A stretch of DNA of 64,000 nt, from NCBI RefSeq assembly GCF_054482595.1, contig NZ_CM137008.1. One strand, given 5' to 3'. The notes under the pieces were generated by a model, which saw only the letters and a list, made by a program, of their open reading frames with translations, made no database searches and was not told the DNA's origin. Position numbers and translations under genes: made by a program. Shown here one piece after another: positions 137-11,036 of this stretch (positions within the stretch are counted from its first letter, which is position 1; each line of letters opens with the position of its first letter).

Positions 137-1636
137 TTAAGTTCTCCGTGCGATGGGCCTGATTGGGGCTGGTATCTTTTTCTCTTTTGGTTTTTTGATG
201 TCGCGCATCATTTTGGCGAAGCGGCGCATCATGTATGCATAGCGAACAGCTGAGAGAACGTCGTCGTTAAGCTTGACGATTTTCCCGTTTTCATCACGGT
301 GATAGAGGCGGAACTCCTCAAAGAATGGCTCACAGGTGTTGAATACTTTGAAGCGACCGTCGAGCATCATGTCTCGCAATTCAGTGATGCCAGGCTCAAC
401 AGCATTACCGCCATCAGGCCATGTCGCATGCTCCTGCAACATCATAAATCCAGCGTCTGCATACTGCCCTTTGAGCTGCTCACCGCCGCCCTTCTCGTGC
501 TGGTTTCCGTCATGAGGCCATGCTGTTGGCACTTTATGCGCCCATGATTTAACCGCTCCCCATGCCTGAACGGCTGTTTTTTCTTTCGCCTTCCACACGC
601 GTGAAACGTAGATTGTGTCTGCGTCCTTATCCCACCAAATCTGAACCTGCGCCTGCGGGTGATCCCATCCGAAATCCATCCCGCCAATTACGTAGAAGTG
701 ATCAGGACACTCGAACGGCTGACACTTAATCGTCTCTTCCGGTATCTGGAAGATTCGACCACTACCCATCGTAGGAATACCGCGAGCACGCGCCTCTCTC
801 TCATGCTCAGGATAGGATGCGATGATTTGCTCTTTCTGCTCGTCGGTATAGTGCTCAGCGTCATAGATGGTCATGTTGACCACTTTCTGCGACTTGCTGG
901 GATTCTTCAGGAACTTGGTAACAACGTCAGACATCCCCATCAGCGGGGTAAATGTCAGAATTGAGAATTGCCCGTATTTGTTGGTACGGGTAAGACCTTC
1001 GCCATAAATGCTGTATGGTGGCTCTTCGTCAAACCACACGCCGTGGATTGTGTCACCCTGCCAGCGAGCACGGCCTTGCGAGTATGGCTTGAAGTAGCAG
1101 ATTGAAATGCCATCTTCAACGCCATCAGCCGTGTGATGCTTAACCAGAAGATGATCAACAAGGTTCGGAAAGAAAGGAGACTTCTTCCAGCTAATGATGT
1201 CTTCTTTCGGTATGGAACCGTAGCCAGGCTCATCATTCTCTTCGATACGACCGCACAGGATGCGTTGAGTCGTTTTGGTTACAGTCTCGTTTGTCTCTCC
1301 ACCAATCCAGAAGACAACAGGCTCATAGAAACGCTTACCTTTCCACTCACCGCCATATTTACCATCAGCAGGATAGCCTTTTGTGCCCGGATAACGACCG
1401 GTAAGGTGAAACGCGACTTCAGCAGCACCAGTAAATGACTTACCAAGCTGGTTACCAGCCATAAAACATCGCTCTGGATAGTCATGCCCGGCGTCGATGA
1501 ACTCACGCTGCTTGCTGTATGGCGTAAATTCATATAGCAGGTGTGTGTTCCGGTAGTTCTCTTCTTCTTCGAGTAGCTCGAGCAACTCGATTTGCTCTTC
1601 GTCGCTCAGGTTATCAAGAATCGCGTCCAGTTCCAC
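137..1636 (-). CDS. Terminase large subunit (P22 gp2-like)
   Basis: 499 aa ORF; recalled match to P22 TerL; position after terS. Confidence 0.85.
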
Positions 1637-2102
1637 GGTTGAATAGCTCCTTGATACGAGAGCGCCGCTTATCGCGATCTCCCTTATCAGGTGTCACGTC
1701 TTCAACTTGCGACTGCTCTTTGAGGCCCAAATCACGGGCGATGATGTTAGCGTTGAGAAGGTCAGCGGCTGCGCCAGAGAATTTCTGGTCGTAGATGACC
1801 TGTTCTGCTCGCGTAACGACTTCAGATAAATCTTCTCGCAGGCGATATGTGCGCCATGTTTCAAGCGTCACATCAATGAACAGAGTGAGGCCGGTAATGG
1901 TCATCGCTCGCATCTTGGCGATAGGCTCTTGTATTACTTCACCCTGATACGAGAACGCCTTCATCTCCCATAGCGGGTTAGCTTCCACCCACTCGAAGTA
2001 TTCACAACAAGCAGCCCACAGCGCCTCAGGCGATTCGAATTTAGGATTTCGCCCATGACTACTGCGGGCCTCCCAAAATCGGTTGCCCTTTGGTGCTGCC
2101 AT
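1614..2102 (-). CDS. Terminase small subunit (P22 gp3-like)
   Basis: 162 aa ORF immediately upstream of terL, overlapping it. Confidence 0.75.
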
Positions 2103-2181
2103 ATTGATTATTTCCCTTCTGCTTGCTTATCCCATTCATCGCGGAATTTGGATGGGTTGTCGAAACCTTGAGTTGCCATGT

Positions 2182-2424
2182 TTATGCTCCTGTAGTGAAC
2201 AGATCTAACGCTTCCTTCGATTTACGCACCGCTTCGATAGTGCGGGTCGTGATATCTGAATTAGCGCCGCCTGACTGGAAGTGAATTTTGAATAGCTCAA
2301 GCTTCAACTCGTCAGTGCCAATGAACTGAAATGCTTCTTCTGCGGCTGCGTTCTGGTTCATGACCAGTTTGTAAATCTCTAACTGGAATTTCTGTTCTTC
2401 AGTCATGGGAATAATCTCTGCCAT
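2182..2424 (-). CDS. Hypothetical phage protein
   Basis: 80 aa ORF between lysis genes and terS; no recognised family. Confidence 0.3.
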   Translation of the reverse strand: MAEIIPMTEEQKFQLEIYKLVMNQNAAAEEAFQFIGTDELKLELFKIHFQSGGANSDITTRTIEAVRKSKEALDLFTTGA

Positions 2425-2571
2425 TGTTGGCTCCGTTTATCCGTTAAAAGGGATATCAGTTAAGTTATCCCGTGTAGGGTATAAGCCATTATCAAAGCCA
2501 CTCTGTAGGGAATGGCTTTTGTGATGGCAATAAAAAAGGCCGCCTAAGCGACCTTTCATTTTTCATCCGTT

Positions 2572-2790
2572 TTAATCATCTGGGTAATTAAGCGGCATCC
2601 AGTGTGTAACCTTGCTTGCTCCTGAATCGATGAATGCCTTGGTTCTCTGCCAGTAAGAGCCCATACATGATAGTTTGAACACGTCACCAGTATCAGTAAG
2701 AGCTATAACCTCTTTAGACCACATCCCTTCTTTGCTTTCTGGTAGCCGGTGTTCAACATTGATCCATTGGTTTCCGTTATCATCCATCAC
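2572..2790 (-). CDS. Small phage protein, DUF551-like
   Basis: 72 aa ORF ending ...VTHWMPLNYPDD, reminiscent of the DUF551 C-terminus. Confidence 0.35.
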   Translation of the reverse strand: MMDDNGNQWINVEHRLPESKEGMWSKEVIALTDTGDVFKLSCMGSYWQRTKAFIDSGASKVTHWMPLNYPDD

Positions 2791-3226
2791 AACCTCGTCT
2801 AGTTGTTCGTCATAGATTCAGTGGCTGGCGGTGACGATTCCGCTTTTCGGGAGCTACCCTAGCCACTGTTTTATTCTATCCGATGTCTTTCCATCAGTCC
2901 GCCACCACAAAGAATCTTTTTTGCCATAAGGCAGGAGGTTCATCTTTCAGTGGCTGCCAGTGTTATTTCCCCACCTACTGGCTTGGGTTGTTTCGCTGTA
3001 CTGCCGTAACTGGTTGCCCAGAATAAATTCCGGTTTCATTATCAAGCCCACCCGTAGATAGGCTTTGTAATGAACCGGCTCTTATCTCAACGCAGCCCCT
3101 TACCGCGCGCCAGATGCTCAATATCAAGCATCAGCAATGAGATGTTTAATCTGGATTCACTCCAGAAGTGATCACCACCCTGTCTACAGAGCCAGATGTG
3201 AAGGATGATGAGTAAAATTATCGCTA

Positions 3227-3664
3227 TCATCGAAGGCATTGCGTCCTGATGTATTCCTGCAGGTAGTCAACCTGCGCGGTTATCCTGTCGATTCCACTTC
3301 GGAGACGGTAATAATTGAGTTCAGCATCTGCTGTAAGTCTTGGGCTTTCTCCATTGCCCATGCCGCTGGCTCCGGTCGTTGACTTTGCACAGGTGGCGGC
3401 GACTTGCAGGCGCTTACGACCAGCAGAAACATCAGCACGGAGACTTTCGATAGTCGCGTTAGCATCAGCAAGCTCCTTTGTGTATCTGGCGTCAAGTTCT
3501 GCTACATCACGTTGACGCTTCTGCATGTCAGCGATTGTGGATGTGGCTTTATCACGTTGCTCTTTGTAGGCGATGGCGTTATCACGGTAATGATTAACAG
3601 CCCATGACAGGCAGACGATGATGCAGATAACCAGAGCGGAGATAATCGCGGTTACTCTGCTCAT
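3227..3664 (-). CDS. Rz: Rz i-spanin
   Basis: 145 aa ORF with N-terminal TM segment, directly after endolysin; contains embedded Rz1 frame. Confidence 0.75.
3280..3465 (-). CDS. Rz1: Rz1 o-spanin lipoprotein (embedded in Rz, alternate frame)
   Basis: Embedded ORF with lipobox LVVSAC and proline-rich [14 protein letters not shown] like lambda Rz1; start set at internal Met. Confidence 0.6.
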
Positions 3665-4137
3665 ACCTCAATCTCTCTGACCGTTCCGCCTGCTTCTTTG
3701 AATTTTGCAATCAGGTTGTCAGCCTTATGCTCGAACTGACCATAACCAGCACCCGGCAACGAAGCCCAGATATTGCTGCAACGGTCGATTGCCTGACGGA
3801 TGTCACCGCGATCAATCATCGGTAAAGCGCCACGCTCTTTAATCTGTTGCAATGCCACAGCGTCCTGGCTTTTGGGAGAGAAGTCTTTCAGGCCAAGTTG
3901 CTTGCGGTAGGCATCCCACCAACGTGAAAGAAGCTGGTAACGTCCGGCGGCTGTTGATTTGAGCTTTGGGTTTAGCGTGACACGTTTGCGAGGGTGATCG
4001 GAGTAATCAGTGAATAGCTCTCCGCCAACAATGACGTCATAACCATGATTTCTGGTTTTCTGACGTCCGTTATCAGTTCCCTCCGACCACGCCAGCATAT
4101 CGAGGAACGCCTTACGTTGATTATTGATTTCCACCAT
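3661..4137 (-). CDS. R: Endolysin R (lambda-type lytic transglycosylase)
   Basis: 158 aa; near-identical to recalled lambda R ([35 protein letters not shown]...). Confidence 0.9.
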
Positions 4138-4444
4138 CTTCTACTCCGGCTTTTTTAGCAGCGAAGCGTTTGATAAGCGAACCTATCGAGTCAGTACCGA
4201 TGTAGCCGATAAACACGCTCGTTATATAAGCGAGATTGCTACTTAGTCCGGCGAAGTCGAGAAGGTCACGAATGAACCAGGCGATAATGGCGCACATCGT
4301 TGCGTCGATTACTGTTTTTGTAAACGCACCGCCATTATATCTGCCGCGAAGGTACGCCATTGCAAACGCAAGGATTGCCCCGATGCCTTGTTCCTTTGCC
4401 GCGAGAATGGCGGCTAACAGGTCATGTTTTTCTGGCATCTTCAT
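4121..4444 (-). CDS. S: Holin S (lambda-type)
   Basis: 107 aa; matches recalled lambda S ([62 protein letters not shown]...). Confidence 0.9.
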
Positions 4445-4980
4445 GTCTTACCCCCAATAAGGGGATTTGCTCTATTTAATTAGGAATAAGGTCGATTACT
4501 GATAGAACAAATCCAGGCTACTGTGTTTAGTAATCAGATTTGTTCGTGACCGATATGCACGGGCAAAACGGCATGAGGTTGTTAGCGCAGCCTCTTGCCA
4601 CCCGCTTTCACGAAGGTCATGTGTAGAAGGCCGCAGCATAACTATCACTGATGAATTCAGGACAGCTAGTGGCTACGGCTCAGTTTGGGTTGTGGCGGCC
4701 GGAATCGAACCGGCTTCCATCGGTGCGCTGCCGATTGCAGTACGCGCGGCGGTCAGCTACATGACTAGTATTTTCACTATCGCCTATCTGCTAGCTCGCC
4801 ATTGAGCTTCACCACAACGATAAGAGCACTGCGCGGCACCTTTCACCAATTCCGCGAGGTCTGCGGGTTCAATGCTCTTACCTGTTGTGCAAATAAAAAA
4901 GCCACCGTTGCAACTTAAGAGTCACTAACGGCAGCTTATGCGAATAGTGTTGCTCATTTGTTCAATGATGTCAACACGTT

Positions 4981-5654: not shown

Positions 5655-6013
5655 ACGTTCTCCAGTTCGGTGATTTTTATTCCAAGCCTTCCGCCTGGTA
5701 CTTTCACACCACGAATTACGCGAATGTCATCGAATTGCTCGTCGTCTTCCGCAAATCCGGCGTGGATAAGGGAGTCGAGTAAACCCTTCAGGATGTTATC
5801 GAGGTCGCGGCGGCGGGAGTCTGGAACGTCTGCGATGACTTTGATGCGGAGTCGTGATTTGGTGAAAATGTCTAACTTGAGTTGGCGGATGATTTGCTGA
5901 ACGTCTTTTCGGTATTTCTGGCCTTTATCGCTGATGTAGTATTGGCTTCCCCGTCTTCGCCAGTAGGTGTTCACCGACGGCGGGTAAGGAAGCACAAACT
6001 GATATTCGTTCAT
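5651..6013 (-). CDS. rusA: RusA-type Holliday junction resolvase
   Basis: 120 aa; PDSRRRDLDNILK motif and overall similarity to RusA. Confidence 0.85.
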   Translation of the reverse strand: MNEYQFVLPYPPSVNTYWRRRGSQYYISDKGQKYRKDVQQIIRQLKLDIFTKSRLRIKVIADVPDSRRRDLDNILKGLLDSLIHAGFAEDDEQFDDIRVIRGVKVPGGRLGIKITELENV

Positions 6014-6300
6014 GACTTAATCTTCCCCTCCTTCAGCAGTATCGCCTGCGTCCTGATTACGCCTTCGAGGTGGTAAAGTCTGGCGTCTTTGTTGTCGAGA
6101 TTATGGGTGCGTCGGTCGATCTCCGCGTGGCAGTCACTACAAGCCCATGCGCCGATCAGGTCGTCAGGCTTCATTCCCGTTCCGCAAATTCCAGCCATCC
6201 GGTAATGTGCCAGAACTGTAGTTTCAGGGTTGCCATTGCATACGCCGTAAATACGTACCTGACATTCTCTTCCGCGCGCTTCTTTGCGTAGGTTAGCCAT
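6010..6300 (-). CDS. YbcO-like putative nuclease (DUF1364)
   Basis: 96 aa; strong similarity to recalled DLP12 YbcO (ARGRECQVRI.GVCNGNPET.VLAH...CHDEIDRRTH). Confidence 0.7.
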   Translation of the reverse strand: MANLRKEARGRECQVRIYGVCNGNPETTVLAHYRMAGICGTGMKPDDLIGAWACSDCHAEIDRRTHNLDNKDARLYHLEGVIRTQAILLKEGKIKS

Positions 6301-7022
6301 TAAGCAGCCTCCCCTGTTACTTTCAGCATTCCGTTATCGAGCAGCTTTCTGGTCAGCCACTGTTGACCACGCCCGGTGATTTTTGTGGTAAACGATATCT
6401 GTATTCCGTGATTTGTGTTGACCGCTGTTTCTTTCACTGTGAAATAGCCGCGATCCATATATTCCTGCATTGGCACATTGCGCCGGGAACCTGAAGCAAT
6501 AAGGATTTTGTGATCGCGCATCCATGCAAACAGTTTGTTTGGACCAATACCAACAACCTTTGCATAGTTTCCAATCAAAATTCCGCTGGCCTCGCCAACT
6601 CGATCGGCAAACTCAACTTTAGGTGCGGCAATTGCGAGCTGGTTTTCCAGTTGCATTTTCTGCTCAGCAAGATCAGCAGCAAGGCGCAACGCTTCCGGTA
6701 ACGTTTTGGGGATATTAACCGCAGTTTCTTCAAGCTCTCGCCAACGGTCAACAAGACGAGCGGTGAATTCCGGCGACAACTGGGCTACAACGACAATACT
6801 GTCTCGCTTTCCTTGTTCGCCTTCGAAGACGTAAGCCTCGACACTACGGCGCAGCCCTAAGTTATTGATTTTTTCGAAAACCTGCAATGCAGGAAGTTGA
6901 ATAACTCCAGATTTAGCCAGGCGCTCTATTGATATTTTTACGTTATCTGGACGACTTCCCACCAACTCAGCGATTTCAATGCTTGTCATTTTGATGGCAT
7001 TGCCATTTATTAACTCATTCAT
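6300..7022 (-). CDS. Phage antirepressor, Rha N-terminal domain with Ant-type C-terminal domain
   Basis: 240 aa; N-terminus MTSIEIAELVGSRPDNVKISIERL typical of Rha family. Confidence 0.55.
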   Translation of the reverse strand: MNELINGNAIKMTSIEIAELVGSRPDNVKISIERLAKSGVIQLPALQVFEKINNLGLRRSVEAYVFEGEQGKRDSIVVVAQLSPEFTARLVDRWRELEETAVNIPKTLPEALRLAADLAEQKMQLENQLAIAAPKVEFADRVGEASGILIGNYAKVVGIGPNKLFAWMRDHKILIASGSRRNVPMQEYMDRGYFTVKETAVNTNHGIQISFTTKITGRGQQWLTRKLLDNGMLKVTGEAA

Positions 7023-7191: not shown

Positions 7192-7568
7192 TATTGGATT
7201 CTCTGCATCATGAGAAAGACAATCATGGCGGCGCGGAGAGGTCTGGTATCAAATATTGGGCTTACACCTTTTGCATCCACACACCATTCAGTTAACTGGT
7301 CTAAGATAGAAATCCGGTATTTCTCAATAATCGGCCATGAGGCGCTCGGATCATTGCAGTAGTCAGGTAAAGGGTTTAATGGCTCAAGACTTGTATCAGA
7401 ATTTCCGTAATACCATTTATTGGTGTTATTCCCTGATGTTTCCGGTTTACATGCCCAAAGGCCTTTAAAAATTATGTCTCCTACCATTCTGTTAATTTCA
7501 AAATCACTTAACTGTGAATAATCCATTGTCATTTCCTCGCACGATGTATTAGCCACCGGATATCCCAC
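7191..7568 (-). CDS. Hypothetical nin-region protein
   Basis: 125 aa ORF (true start may be an internal Met); no recognised family. Confidence 0.35.
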
Positions 7569-7701
7569 AGGTGAGCCGTGTAGTTGAATGTTTTTACGTC
7601 AGATTCTTTTGGGATTGGCTTGGGTTTATTTCTGGAGCGTTTCGTTGGAAGGTATTTGCAGTTTTCACAGATTATGTCGGTGATGCTTCGTCGCTGTCGT
7701 C

Positions 7702-8547
7702 TCATGCCGCATCCTCAAAATTAAATCCAAGCTGACATGAAAATGCTTCACATGATTCAGAACACGAACCTGAATCATACTGTCGCATTGATGTCATTCT
7801 TGAGGCTAACTCATCTCTTGATATATCACTAAACAAGGCAATCAGTGATTTAAGTGTATTATTCCCTCGATACATAACCGGTTCCTTTCCTGTTTTTATT
7901 TCTGTATCAAGGATGTTGATAAATGCATCTGCAAGTTCTGGCTCATCCATGGCTGCCAGCGCAACCTTTTGCATACTTTTTTTTATACAGAAAACACAAT
8001 TACCAAGATGCTCCTGTATGCCAAGATCAAACTTCTGCCCACTCCACCAATCAAGCACATCCTGTTTTTCAAAATCGCTTATATCAGCCAGGTACCGAAA
8101 ACCATTAGCCCTTTTAAGCCTGTTTGGTTCATCTGTGCGAATGCCAAGCCATGTGATGTAATTTCCTTTCCCAAACTTTTCCTGACAATATTTGGTGAAT
8201 GGAACAGACTTCATTCTGTCGGTACAGAACGCACCGCCGATATATGGATGTCCGTATTTATTTAACATCCTTTTCCACGGTATAAGATCTGGACCAATAT
8301 CATTGACACCTATCTCTTCATAACTACTGGCCTTCCCCATTTCTGGATTAGGTATTACACGAAGGCAATGTAAGTCTATTTTCCAGTTACTGACGATATT
8401 TCGGATGAACTCATATGTTTTAGGGTGCTCTGCCCCTGTATCCATGAAAACGTAATGCACGTCTTCACCTGACTGTCGCTTTTGCTCCATTAGCCAGAGC
8501 AAATATGCTGACGTCCTGCCACCTGAGAAACTAACGACATTTACCAT
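7702..8547 (-). CDS. PAPS reductase-like / PP-loop ATP pyrophosphatase family protein (possibly NinC-equivalent)
   Basis: N-terminal [16 protein letters not shown]-loop motif; start set at Met MVNVV so it abuts the methyltransferase gene; NinC equivalence not verified. Confidence 0.5.
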
Positions 8548-9071
8548 GCAGCCCTCCTGACGCCCTGCCCGATCGCCATCAATGCCGCTTTGGATACGGT
8601 AGTAAACATCCGTCGAGGACTGATGAACGGTCGCCAAATCAGCAGCATGGAGCCTTTGCTGTTTCCCTTCTTCTCCAGCCCTGTCGATGGTTCGATAAAA
8701 TTAATCCGTCCATCAGTGATGATGCGAACTTCGTCAATACTCTCCAGAGCCTTGCTGAACCATCCGACAGACATATCCTCTGGCACAAGCATCACTACCG
8801 TCTGTCGCTGTTGTATGCACTGCTCAGCGGCTTTTTCCACCCACGGCCTGATATTGCTGTACGGTGGGTTATTCCAGATTGCACCGTGGCTTATCCACTC
8901 AGAATTTAGCGCGTCGTCGGCCTCAGTTAACCAGTGAGCGCACAGAGCATTTTTGTCGCTCGCTGCCGAATCCAGCCAGAATCCAAACTCAATATCCAGT
9001 GCATCAAAAAGCCAAAGCGGCGTTTGCCAGCAGTCCTTGTCGTGTGCTGGCGTATTTGATTTGATAGTCAT
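8541..9071 (-). CDS. Phage Dam-like DNA N6-adenine methyltransferase
   Basis: WQTPLWLFDAL...NPPYS motifs; start set at MTIKSN overlapping ninB stop. Confidence 0.6.
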   Translation of the reverse strand: MTIKSNTPAHDKDCWQTPLWLFDALDIEFGFWLDSAASDKNALCAHWLTEADDALNSEWISHGAIWNNPPYSNIRPWVEKAAEQCIQQRQTVVMLVPEDMSVGWFSKALESIDEVRIITDGRINFIEPSTGLEKKGNSKGSMLLIWRPFISPRRMFTTVSKAALMAIGQGVRRAAW

Positions 9072-9508
9072 GCAGCCCGATCTCCCCATCTCGCTTTCCA
9101 CTCCAGAGCCAGTCTCGCTTCGTCTGACCACTTAACGCCACGCTCTGTACCGAATGCCTGTATAAGCTCTAATAGCTCCGCAAATTCGCCTACACGCATC
9201 CTGCTGGTTGACTGGCCTATTACCACAAAGCCATTCCCGGCAAGGTTAGGAACAACATCCTGCTGCTTTAATGCTGCGGTAAACACACACTTCCAGCTTT
9301 CTGCATCCAGCCAGCGACCATGCCATTCAACCTGACGAGAGACGTCACCAAGGCAAGCCCAAAGCTTTCGATTCTGGTCTAAGCTGCGGTTGCGTTCCTG
9401 AATGGTTACTACGATTGGTTTGGTTGGGTCTGGAAGAATTTGCTGTACCGCGTGAATAGCGTTTTGCTGATGTGCTGGAGATCGAATTTCAAAGGTTAGT
9501 TTTTTCAT
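9068..9508 (-). CDS. ninB: NinB (Orf-family recombination mediator)
   Basis: About 146 aa from Met MKKLTFEIRS with GAGGG-type RBS; NinB-like sequence and position after the helicase gene. Confidence 0.7.
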   Translation of the reverse strand: MKKLTFEIRSPAHQQNAIHAVQQILPDPTKPIVVTIQERNRSLDQNRKLWACLGDVSRQVEWHGRWLDAESWKCVFTAALKQQDVVPNLAGNGFVVIGQSTSRMRVGEFAELLELIQAFGTERGVKWSDEARLALEWKARWGDRAA

Positions 9509-9525
9509 GACTTCCCTCTCCCCCA

Positions 9526-9555
9526 AATAAAAAGGCCTGCGATTACCAGCAGGCC
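9526..9555 (-). terminator. Rho-independent terminator (tR2-like, between helicase gene and nin region)
   Basis: GGCCTGC-N8-GCAGGCC hairpin followed by T-run on the minus strand. Confidence 0.4.
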
Positions 9556-9584
9556 TGTTATTAGCTCAGTGATGTAGATGGTCA

Positions 9585-11036
9585 TCAGAATCCTCCTTTC
9601 TTCTTGGACTGCGGTTCCTCGCGTTCACGTCGGCGCATTTCAGCAGACTGTTGGTCTGTGTCATAAATAGCGCCATTTGCCTGAATGCAATACACCGTGC
9701 CGGTATTGCCATGACGATTGAGACGAAGGATTAGTTCGGTTTCACCAGGCGGAACACTGTCATCAAAAGCACCTTCACGATGGATCCCCACCCAATAATC
9801 GCAATCCTGTTCAATCTGCCCTGTATCGCGCGAGTCACTTGGTAATGGGCGTTTATTGGTTCGGCTTTCCAGTGCGCGGTTAAGCTGCGTCAGAAGCACA
9901 ACAACGCAATCAAGCTCTTTGGCAAGGTTCTTCAGTCCTTTGGTGATCATGCCGTAAGCAAGGTCGTTGCGATCGGCCTTCTCAGCGGTCATTAGTGTCA
10001 GGTAATCGACCAGAATCATGCCAACACATCCTTTTTCTCGCTTGATTCGACGGCTTTCGCTGACGATTTGAGCCAGAGATAATCCCGGCGTGTCGTCGAT
10101 GTAAAGCAGGTCGATTTCACTCAAGCGATTGGCTGTTTCGATCGCCCTGTTGAAGTCACCATCGTAATCACCCTGATAGCCGTCATCAGCGTCATTTGTC
10201 GCCGGAAGGTAAAAAATATTCGGGTTAACACCTGACTTCTGTCCCACCAGTTTTTCCAGTATCTGGTCACCTGGCATTTCAAGGCTGAACATCAGAGCGG
10301 GCTTTTTCTCATGCACTGCGCAGTTGATTGCCATCTGGCTGTATAGCGTCGTTTTCCCCATCTTAGGGCGAGCGCCAATGACAAACAGAGAGCCTTTCAC
10401 CAGACCTTTCGGTGACAGCATCCTGTCCAGCGATGGGATCCCTGTGCTCATTCCCCGTTGTTCGCCTGATGGGTCAAATCGCTTCTCAAGGTCGCTAACC
10501 CAGTCTTCCATGACCTCACCAAATGAACGAAGGCCGCGACGCGATCCGGTTTTTGCATGGTCTGTCAGTTGCGTGAAAATCGACTGAATAGCTTCGTACT
10601 TCTGCGTTGCAGTCATTCCGTTGCGGGAATAGAGCAATTCCGTCGCTTCAGTCATGCGGTTGATGGCGTAGCGTTCCATTGCGGTTTCACGAACCTGCAT
10701 TGCATAGGCAACGATGTTTGCGGCGCTTGGCGTGTTCTTTGCGATCTCAGCGATATAAGCAAAACCGCCAACAGACGCCGTTAACGATTTACGCTCCAGT
10801 TCATCGAAAAGCGTCAGGCCATCTACTGGCTTTTGCTCCCGGTGCATTCTGGTTATTTCTTCGAAAAGGATTTTGTGTGGCCGGCTGTAAAATGAGTCAG
10901 GCTTCAGCATCGCCAGAACTTTCTGGACGCGCTCACTGCTGTCATCATCCAGAAGCAATCCACCAATCACCGCCTGCTCTGCCTCGATGCTATGGGGCGG
11001 CGCATAAAAATTATCGGTCATCGTGTTCACCCTCAC
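9585..11036 (-). CDS. DnaB-family replicative helicase (P22 gene 12-type)
   Basis: 483 aa; DnaB N-terminal domain and Walker A GARPKMGKT. Confidence 0.85.
   Translation of the reverse strand: MRVNTMTDNFYAPPHSIEAEQAVIGGLLLDDDSSERVQKVLAMLKPDSFYSRPHKILFEEITRMHREQKPVDGLTLFDELERKSLTASVGGFAYIAEIAKNTPSAANIVAYAMQVRETAMERYAINRMTEATELLYSRNGMTATQKYEAIQSIFTQLTDHAKTGSRRGLRSFGEVMEDWVSDLEKRFDPSGEQRGMSTGIPSLDRMLSPKGLVKGSLFVIGARPKMGKTTLYSQMAINCAVHEKKPALMFSLEMPGDQILEKLVGQKSGVNPNIFYLPATNDADDGYQGDYDGDFNRAIETANRLSEIDLLYIDDTPGLSLAQIVSESRRIKREKGCVGMILVDYLTLMTAEKADRNDLAYGMITKGLKNLAKELDCVVVLLTQLNRALESRTNKRPLPSDSRDTGQIEQDCDYWVGIHREGAFDDSVPPGETELILRLNRHGNTGTVYCIQANGAIYDTDQQSAEMRRREREEPQSKKKGGF

Follow-up and report, generated by a model that had tools for sequence, protein, structure and literature searches.

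Adenine methyltransferase genes and genes for so-called phosphoadenosine phosphosulfate (PAPS) reductases can lie side by side in the nin region of lambdoid prophages. Does this neighbourhood reflect a shared function of the two products, or synteny alone? The question is raised by a stretch of 64,000 nucleotides of contig NZ_CM137008.1 (assembly GCF_054482595.1; the window hereafter), where dam (8541..9071, minus strand, 176 aa; ATG at 9071, TAA at 8541) is followed downstream on the same strand by the gene of a 281-aa protein (7702..8547, minus strand; ATG at 8547, TGA at 7702), the gene order being ninB-dam-ninC-ninE according to the list of open reading frames (ORFs) and direct reading of the sequence. 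A sequence-only reading of the window had placed a Dam-type methylase and a protein with an SGGxxS motif between ninB and ninF; its coordinates and the 281-aa length agree with the ORFs, with the profile matches and with the motif found (SFSGGRTS). NinC, as the second protein proved to be, probably helps phage DNA to evade bacterial restriction, since fusions to DNA methylases are frequent among its relatives in other phages. The explanation that we favour, to which we give about an even chance, is that the nin region is built of cassettes and that NinC would be a DNA-directed, DndC/SspD-like anti-restriction enzyme, working alongside the phage Dam without requiring it.

The 281-aa product is a PP-loop ATP-pyrophosphatase-like protein of the ‘PAPS reductase family’. 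It shares 55.9% identity, over 99% of its length, with lambda NinC (Nin290, NP_040635; 290 aa; tblastn E 5e-100) and 98.6% identity with the NinC of P22-like Salmonella phages such as SE16 and SF11. Profile searches gave a weak match to PF01507 (Pfam E 1.1e-7) and a match to PHROG 33262 with an E value of 1e-111. On these matches the protein is a member of the NinC family, and it falls into a cluster of 435 proteins at 99% identity that is named already in NCBI and UniRef. The sequence-only reading had hesitated between a NinC-type protein and a nucleic-acid-modifying partner of the methylase; each proved right in part, the latter through the methyltransferase fusions of the family and the anti-Dnd phage segment described below. 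The window protein and lambda NinC (PHROG 33262/424 ‘PAPS reductase’ family) have in common the PP-loop, five conserved cysteines, the position in the nin region and the linker at the start codon. They differ in that the window protein is another allele (281 aa against 290 aa, 41% GC), that a dam cassette is inserted between ninB and ninC and that no ninD follows the window ninC.

The PP-loop (SFSGGRTS, residues 6-13), C108 (in FCTDR), C184 and C187 (in GNCxFC) and also C266 are invariant columns in alignments of 15 and of 64 NinC sequences, and C262/C266 (in GSCSESCE) is near-invariant as a pair, in or beside a C-terminal tail of low model confidence. The predicted structure is confident overall (predicted local distance difference test, pLDDT, 88; predicted template modelling score, pTM, 0.87), with pLDDT below 50 at residues 263-265 and 270-281. 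No solved structure of a close NinC relative was found; CysH and adenosine phosphosulfate (APS) reductase alone match, at the PP-loop. A chain named ‘PptA’ (PDB 21fy chain C, 270 aa) gave a weak N-terminal match to the NinC profile (E 0.31), and PptA could not be traced in the searchable literature. Several NinC homologues with about 70% identity to the window protein (P0068, 423 aa; P0100, 399 aa; P0014, P0036, P0069, P0070 and P0073) carry C-terminal extensions of 60-150 aa, for which no Pfam match was recorded and which show no similarity to Dam; these extensions may be another fusion partner.

The methylase matches PF05869 (Pfam E 2.1e-64) and the NCBIfam equivalog TIGR01712, ‘phage N-6-adenine-methyltransferase’, with 264.2 bits (cut-off 97.05), residues 2-168 aligning with positions 1-165 of the profile, and its catalytic motif is intact (NPPY at 68-71, within NNPPYS at 67-72). 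With the methylases of Sf101 and vB_SosS_Oslo it shares 99% identity, and its position after ninB is that seen in these two and in hundreds of lambdoid phages. Of 5426 complete E. coli genomes, 1539 (28%) carry the dam allele (DNA, at least 95% identity), as do hundreds of phage records. In its full-length equivalog match, its NPPY motif and its orphan status it is like the TIGR01712/PF05869 phage enzymes of the T1 and Stx-phage VT-2 Dam type, the sole difference being one extra C-terminal residue, a Trp that results from a TGA-to-TGG change at the junction. By these matches the window Dam is the common lambdoid orphan phage Dam. The characterised T1 and VT-2 enzymes methylate adenine at GATC. 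Unlike in a type II restriction-modification system, no cognate restriction endonuclease adjoins the methylase: the annotated neighbours are NinB, NinC, NinE, NinX, NinF, Ant, an HNH-like protein, RusA and Q, and the nuclease-like genes nearby are only the standard ones of nin regions, those of the 96-aa HNH-like protein (PHROG 131) and RusA, about 1.4 kb off. PADLOC classifies the enzyme as an ‘orphan methyltransferase’. The sequence-only reading was right on this point too, and its suggestion that the methylase is an anti-restriction orphan is plausible.

The evidence that ties NinC to DNA methylation comes from the family at large. Eighty IMG/VR loci with NinC relatives (53-99% identity) and eight GenBank phage loci, that is 88 loci in 39 clusters at 90% identity, were scored for methyltransferase links by tblastn, ORF tracing, motif scans, PHROGs and Pfam. 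NinC is fused in frame to a DNA methyltransferase in 11 of the 39 clusters; a methyltransferase gene directly adjoins it, in either order, in another 5, and lies within 1-2.5 kb in 6. As a rough expectation, well under 10% of randomly chosen phage genes should have a methyltransferase within 3 kb. The fusion partner is either a PF05869-type Dam, of several sub-lineages (e.g. L041, L042 and L045) with 25-84% identity to two Dam queries (the window Dam and a Vibrio-phage Dam domain), or a PF02086 enzyme of the E. coli-Dam-like D12 class, unrelated to PF05869 (loci L036, L039, L047 and L052). The most elaborate architecture, PF00145 C5-cytosine methylase plus PF01507 NinC-type domain plus PF02086 D12 Dam, occupies a single 1099-aa ORF at 1402-4698 of locus L040 (IMGVR_UViG_2890773813_000005). 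In three sisters of L040 (L039, L047 and L052) the NinC and D12 parts are kept, with apparent remnants of the C5-methylase N-terminus upstream. Pfam confirms both the PF01507+PF05869 and the PF00145+PF01507+PF02086 fusions. The fused methyltransferase domains keep an intact NPPY or DPPY, and the fusions have dedicated acidic linkers, come in both gene orders and occur also in non-lambdoid phages without the nin linker. Methyltransferase fusions likewise make up ranks 2-5 among the closest AlphaFold-DB (AFDB50) neighbours of the NinC model (from Yersinia, Lelliottia, Providencia and Pectobacterium), and no other type of neighbour recurs beside the methyltransferases in the NinC loci. The NinC family thus has a real and recurrent link, beyond synteny, to DNA methyltransferases, and these belong to at least two Pfam families with no relation to each other.

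One of the PF05869-type fusions belongs to a phage segment with a published phenotype. Two genes of Vibrio phage 44E38.1, p0018 and p0019, when moved into a sister phage, permitted infection of a Dnd+ host, and p0018 encodes a 479-aa fusion of PAPS and Dam domains (Piel et al., bioRxiv 10.1101/2021.05.05.442762). In a later preprint the result is cited as a phage PAPS reductase promoting Dnd evasion. Compared with p0018, the window proteins show 61% identity in the NinC domain and 38% in the Dam domain. As in p0018, a NinC-type and a PF05869-type domain are both present, in a setting of early or recombination genes. Unlike p0018, which is one polypeptide with NinC at the N-terminus, the window has two ORFs, Dam first, with a stop codon between them. 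A p0019-like third partner is absent from the window and from the other NinC loci (88 loci), and the anti-Dnd activity was published for the Vibrio fusion segment, not for a stand-alone NinC.

The similarity of NinC to known enzymes may point in the same direction. Its matches in the defence library (PADLOC) rank as SspD (E 2.4e-14), BrxP (6e-8) and DndC (4.5e-4), that is PP-loop subunits of systems inserting sulfur into the DNA backbone, with which NinC has the PP-loop in common; NinC is, however, much smaller than DndC and BrxP. In the published description (PMC10853773), DndC is an ATP pyrophosphatase of the PP-loop type that has a 4Fe-4S centre on three cysteines as well as a cysteine dyad thought to relay sulfur. 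The DndH restriction subunit contains a catalytically dead DAM domain, proposed to compete with the methylases of invaders (PMC10853773), which would give phages a rationale for pairing a live Dam with a DndC-like enzyme.

We propose that Dam would methylate adenine in the phage DNA and protect it from methylation-sensitive restriction, while NinC would be a small DndC/SspD-like PP-loop enzyme with no part in sulfate assimilation. A [4Fe-4S] cluster would probably sit on C108, C184 and C187, and C262/C266, on the flexible tail, would be the probable sulfur-relay cysteine pair. NinC would probably spend ATP on activating DNA at one site, the likeliest being the backbone or a base beside the methylase target, and its activity would shield the phage DNA from phosphorothioate-linked (Dnd/Ssp-type) restriction. 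It would work with an adenine methyltransferase, phage-borne or host Dam, where one is present, and would need no phage copy in cis; NinC would not depend on a phage Dam because enterobacterial and Vibrio hosts have their own. A bolder version, which we hold to be improbable, makes NinC an autonomous minimal DNA modifier of the sulfur or adenylation type, for which the adenine methyltransferase (fused, adjacent or host Dam) would be the sequence-targeting module; it would mark phage DNA at or beside Dam sites and so blind Dnd/Ssp-type restriction without partners of the DndD/E or SspB/C type.

Several observations weigh against an anti-restriction role of NinC. No methyltransferase was detected within 3 kb of NinC in 17 of the 39 clusters, and NinC is alone in lambda, in SE16, in Klebsiella phage SBP and in an Acinetobacter phage. 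NinC proteins are 98-99% identical whether preceded by dam or by ninB, with no sign of co-adaptation. The SspD match spans the N-terminal PP-loop half (residues 4-144 on positions 3-122 of a 277-position profile), and the likeness of the three invariant cysteines and the C262/C266 tail pair to those of DndC is one of description, not of alignment. The four established phosphorothioate systems all require a nucleoside triphosphatase (NTPase) and a DNA-binding partner (PMC12914056). Nothing of the kind lies beside ninC: the annotated window neighbours include neither a DndD/E, SspB/C or BrxC partner nor a cysteine desulfurase, and no ATPase (DndD/SspC/BrxC) or DNA-binding or nicking subunit (DndE/SspB) turned up in the inspected comparator loci. 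In the Vibrio experiment p0018 and p0019 were transferred together and the PAPS domain was not isolated (10.1101/2021.05.05.442762). Lambda NinC is dispensable (PMC10695390), and no interactions of it were detected. No biochemical activity of any NinC protein, nor any phosphorothioate product, is on record; the literature on NinC function offers only ‘poorly understood’, ‘non-essential’ and ‘deserve further investigation’, the last in a 2024 paper on phage PAPS-reductase homologues.

Among the rivals the one that survives best is pure synteny, in which Dam and NinC are unrelated cassettes sharing the slot after ninB, NinC has no connection with methylation, and the fusions are by-products of densely packed, overlapping early genes. 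The junctions speak for it. An 11-nt linker, GGGCTGCATGA, which holds a Shine-Dalgarno sequence and an overlapping stop and start, is shared by the lambda ninB-to-ninC junction (GGGCTGCATGATAAATGTCGTT), the window ninB-to-dam junction (GGGCTGCATGACTATC) and the window dam-to-ninC junction (GGGCTGCATGGTAAATGTCGTT). At the last of these (8541..8558, minus strand, GGAGGGCTGCATGGTAA; aligned with ST540, Oslo, SE16 and Sf101) dam and ninC overlap by 7 nt (ATGGTAA, from the ninC start to the dam stop), and a Shine-Dalgarno sequence, GGAGG, lies 7 nt upstream. The overlap is this long because the linker differs here by one A-to-G change (ATGA to ATGG), which turned the TGA stop of dam into Trp and moved the stop to the next TAA; E. 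coli ST540, Oslo and SE16 keep the unaltered ATGA. The sequence-only reading had claimed translational coupling of the pair on the strength of this overlap. The overlap is real, whereas its specificity is not: a start/stop overlap is present at each gene junction of the region, and a coupling particular to Dam and NinC was rejected, the same linker and overlap occurring at ninB-to-dam, at ninC-to-ninE, at ninB-to-ninC of lambda and SE16 and at dam-to-ninE of Sf101. Because each cassette ends in a linker with a Shine-Dalgarno sequence and an overlapping stop and start, the genes of the nin region are co-transcribed by early transcription of the pR type and coupled in translation, irrespective of what they do.

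The distribution of the cassettes favours synteny as well. On either side of the dam cassette, at 8541-8547 and 9068-9078 of the window, the 10-11-nt nin linker, GGGCTGCATG(A/G), stands as a direct repeat, which looks like a recombination site for adding or removing the cassette. Sequenced phages show the combinations ninB-dam-ninE (Sf101), ninB-ninC-ninE (SE16) and ninB-dam-ninC (vB_SosS_Oslo). The window ninC allele is present in 27 complete E. coli genomes, with the order ninB-dam-ninC in 15 of them; given how many nin regions carry dam, the pair seems about as frequent as free assortment of cassettes would make it, and the association within lambdoid phages looks like mere synteny. That the NinC alleles are the same with and without dam and that NinC stands alone in many phages fits synteny equally, and a single base at an ATGA junction easily alters reading frames, as the A-to-G change illustrates by having shifted the dam stop one codon. 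The locus is, in short, a normal lambdoid nin region of interchangeable cassettes: a lambda-identical ninB, a common orphan Dam, a low-GC NinC as in P22-like Salmonella phages, and ninE. A novel arrangement was rejected, since ninB-dam-ninC recurs in vB_SosS_Oslo, in several IMG/VR prophages and in 15 complete E. coli genomes, and both genes and their order are already known, RefSeq prophages and sequenced phages being annotated with them. Among INPHARED phage records none covers at least 80% of the exact DNA, since they have another ninC allele.

What counts against synteny is the family. The in-frame fusions in 11 clusters involve at least two unrelated methyltransferase families; their linkers are dedicated and acidic, their catalytic motifs are intact, and they are met with in non-lambdoid phages without the nin linker. 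No other type of neighbour recurs comparably, p0019 included. The possibility raised by the sequence-only reading, that the pair is simply NinC and the common lambdoid Dam with no linkage beyond synteny, therefore describes this locus but not the NinC family, which is recurrently tied to methyltransferases. Pure synteny as the whole explanation is in our judgement unlikely, albeit a serious contender.

An obligate two-component hypermodification is quite improbable. Here Dam would provide recognition and base flipping, and NinC would add a second modification, sulfur-containing or adenylation-dependent, at or beside the Dam site, the two forming a minimal pair without a DndD/E-type ATPase. In its favour, fusions exist with either gene first, the motifs of each domain being intact, and the PP-loop with its cysteine pattern recalls the sulfur-transfer enzymes TtuA, LarE and DndC; in BREX type 4, moreover, a protein with a PAPS-reductase domain replaces the adenine methylase (PMC12914056). 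An obligate partnership is, however, at odds with the frequent occurrence of NinC alone, lambda included, and known phosphorothioate synthesis requires an NTPase. Lambda DNA is not known to carry any unusual modification, which also counts against the pair, and nothing in the analysis shows a chemical product.

It is very unlikely that NinC is directed at RNA, thiolating or otherwise modifying tRNA like TtcA, TtuA or TilS, for instance to escape anticodon nucleases or to tune translation. The PP-loop and the CxxC pattern do fit this class; the next structural neighbours of the NinC model after the CysH-type folds are the sulfur transferases LarE and TtuA, also TilS, and a profile search returned a weak match to the TilS N-domain. 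Yet the fusion partners are DNA methyltransferases rather than RNA-binding domains, in the defence library NinC comes closest to SspD, BrxP and DndC, which modify DNA, and the published phenotype opposes a DNA-targeting system.

The family name suggests an enzyme of sulfate assimilation. With CysH and APS reductases (1SUR, 6VPU, 2GOY) NinC shares the PP-loop core that binds nucleotides and, in broad outline, the placing of a cysteine on a mobile C-terminal tail; unlike CysH it has the tail motif SCSESCE and an extra helical C-terminal half. The C-terminal motif of CysH is ECGLH. Similarity to the solved PAPS/APS reductases is limited to the first ~70 residues (the PP-loop), and the top PDB folds for the NinC model, 1SUR and 6VPU (CysH/APS reductase), reach TM-scores of 0.40-0.53 over ~179 of the 281 residues, the PP-loop core only. 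NinC scored 18.6 bits against the CysH equivalog NF002537 (cut-off 154) and 16.5 against the APS_reductase model (cut-off 235); a true CysH was rejected on the former. That NinC is an auxiliary metabolic gene, a genuine PAPS/APS reductase boosting host sulfate assimilation in infection or lysogeny, is therefore hardly credible, although Pfam, PHROG and RefSeq all name it ‘phosphoadenosine phosphosulfate reductase’, CysH and APS reductase are its nearest solved folds and some papers, such as a 2026 preprint, take prophage PAPS reductases as sulfur-metabolism genes (10.64898/2026.02.18.706556), for besides the scores, the short similarity and the deviant tail, a recurrent fusion to DNA methyltransferases would be senseless for sulfate assimilation.

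The surroundings of the two genes are those of a lambdoid early region. NinB (9068..9508, minus strand, 146 aa; Orf-family recombination mediator, PHROG 72, E 9.5e-59) is 100% identical to lambda NinB (tblastn), and its TGA stop overlaps the dam ATG as ATGA (9071-9068); ninE (7529..7705, minus strand, 58 aa) begins with an ATG that overlaps the ninC TGA in the same way (ATGA, 7705-7702) in a linker of the same type. A gene for a DnaB-like helicase lies on the upstream side of ninB. Between the two, at 9533..9556 (minus strand), a consensus scan detected a strong terminator-like hairpin of 8 pairs, 6 of them GC, followed by the T-run TTTTATTT, at the expected place of a tR2-type nin-region terminator; the scan found no second site in 7300-9700 and none between dam, ninC and ninE. 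Past ninE come ninX and ninF, then the genes for an Ant-type antirepressor, the small HNH-like protein (PHROG 131), RusA and a NinH-like protein, then Q. At 6010-7022 the antirepressor (240 aa, PHROG 63) lies within the nin region, between ninF and the 96-aa HNH-like gene, which in this prophage precedes rusA; the junction resolvase of the prophage is RusA, not NinG/Rap.

The GC content makes a sharp step at the dam/ninC boundary (7702-8547 against 8541-9526), ninC (40.9%) and ninX (41%) standing against dam (51.4%) and ninB (50.5%). This fall from ~51% to 40.9% suggests that the ninC cassette was acquired separately, from a phage pool of lower GC content. GATC is depleted in the first 40 kb of the window (1-40000, including the prophage early region), with 49 and 54 sites per 20 kb against ~78 expected, and not in the last 24 kb (40001-64000), where 105 were observed and 94 expected; the depletion could reflect selection tied to Dam or to mismatch repair, or different origins of the two parts. 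At most 63% of the first 25 kb of the window is covered in one place by any complete E. coli genome: the mosaic prophage as a whole is absent from the complete E. coli collection, while each of its modules is present. The related E. coli ST540 prophage that shares the nin region (L010, 12442-13857) has an annotated anti-CBASS Acb1-family protein adjoining terminase, and its annotation also includes Ral and anti-RecBCD genes, so that it is well supplied with counter-defence.

The locus itself thus adds nothing new; its value is that of a pointer to the function of NinC. ‘PAPS reductase’ genes are among the most widespread unexplained genes of phages, read by some as sulfur-metabolism genes and by others as anti-defence genes, and lambda ninC has had no assigned function since the genome was sequenced. 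Fusions to methyltransferases of two unrelated families, together with a single anti-Dnd phenotype, argue that the NinC family acts on DNA in the restriction arms race. If NinC were indeed an autonomous DNA modifier, lambda’s 40-year-old orphan gene would at last have a function. For testing whether the family acts on DNA in this way, lambda and its relatives offer an easy system.

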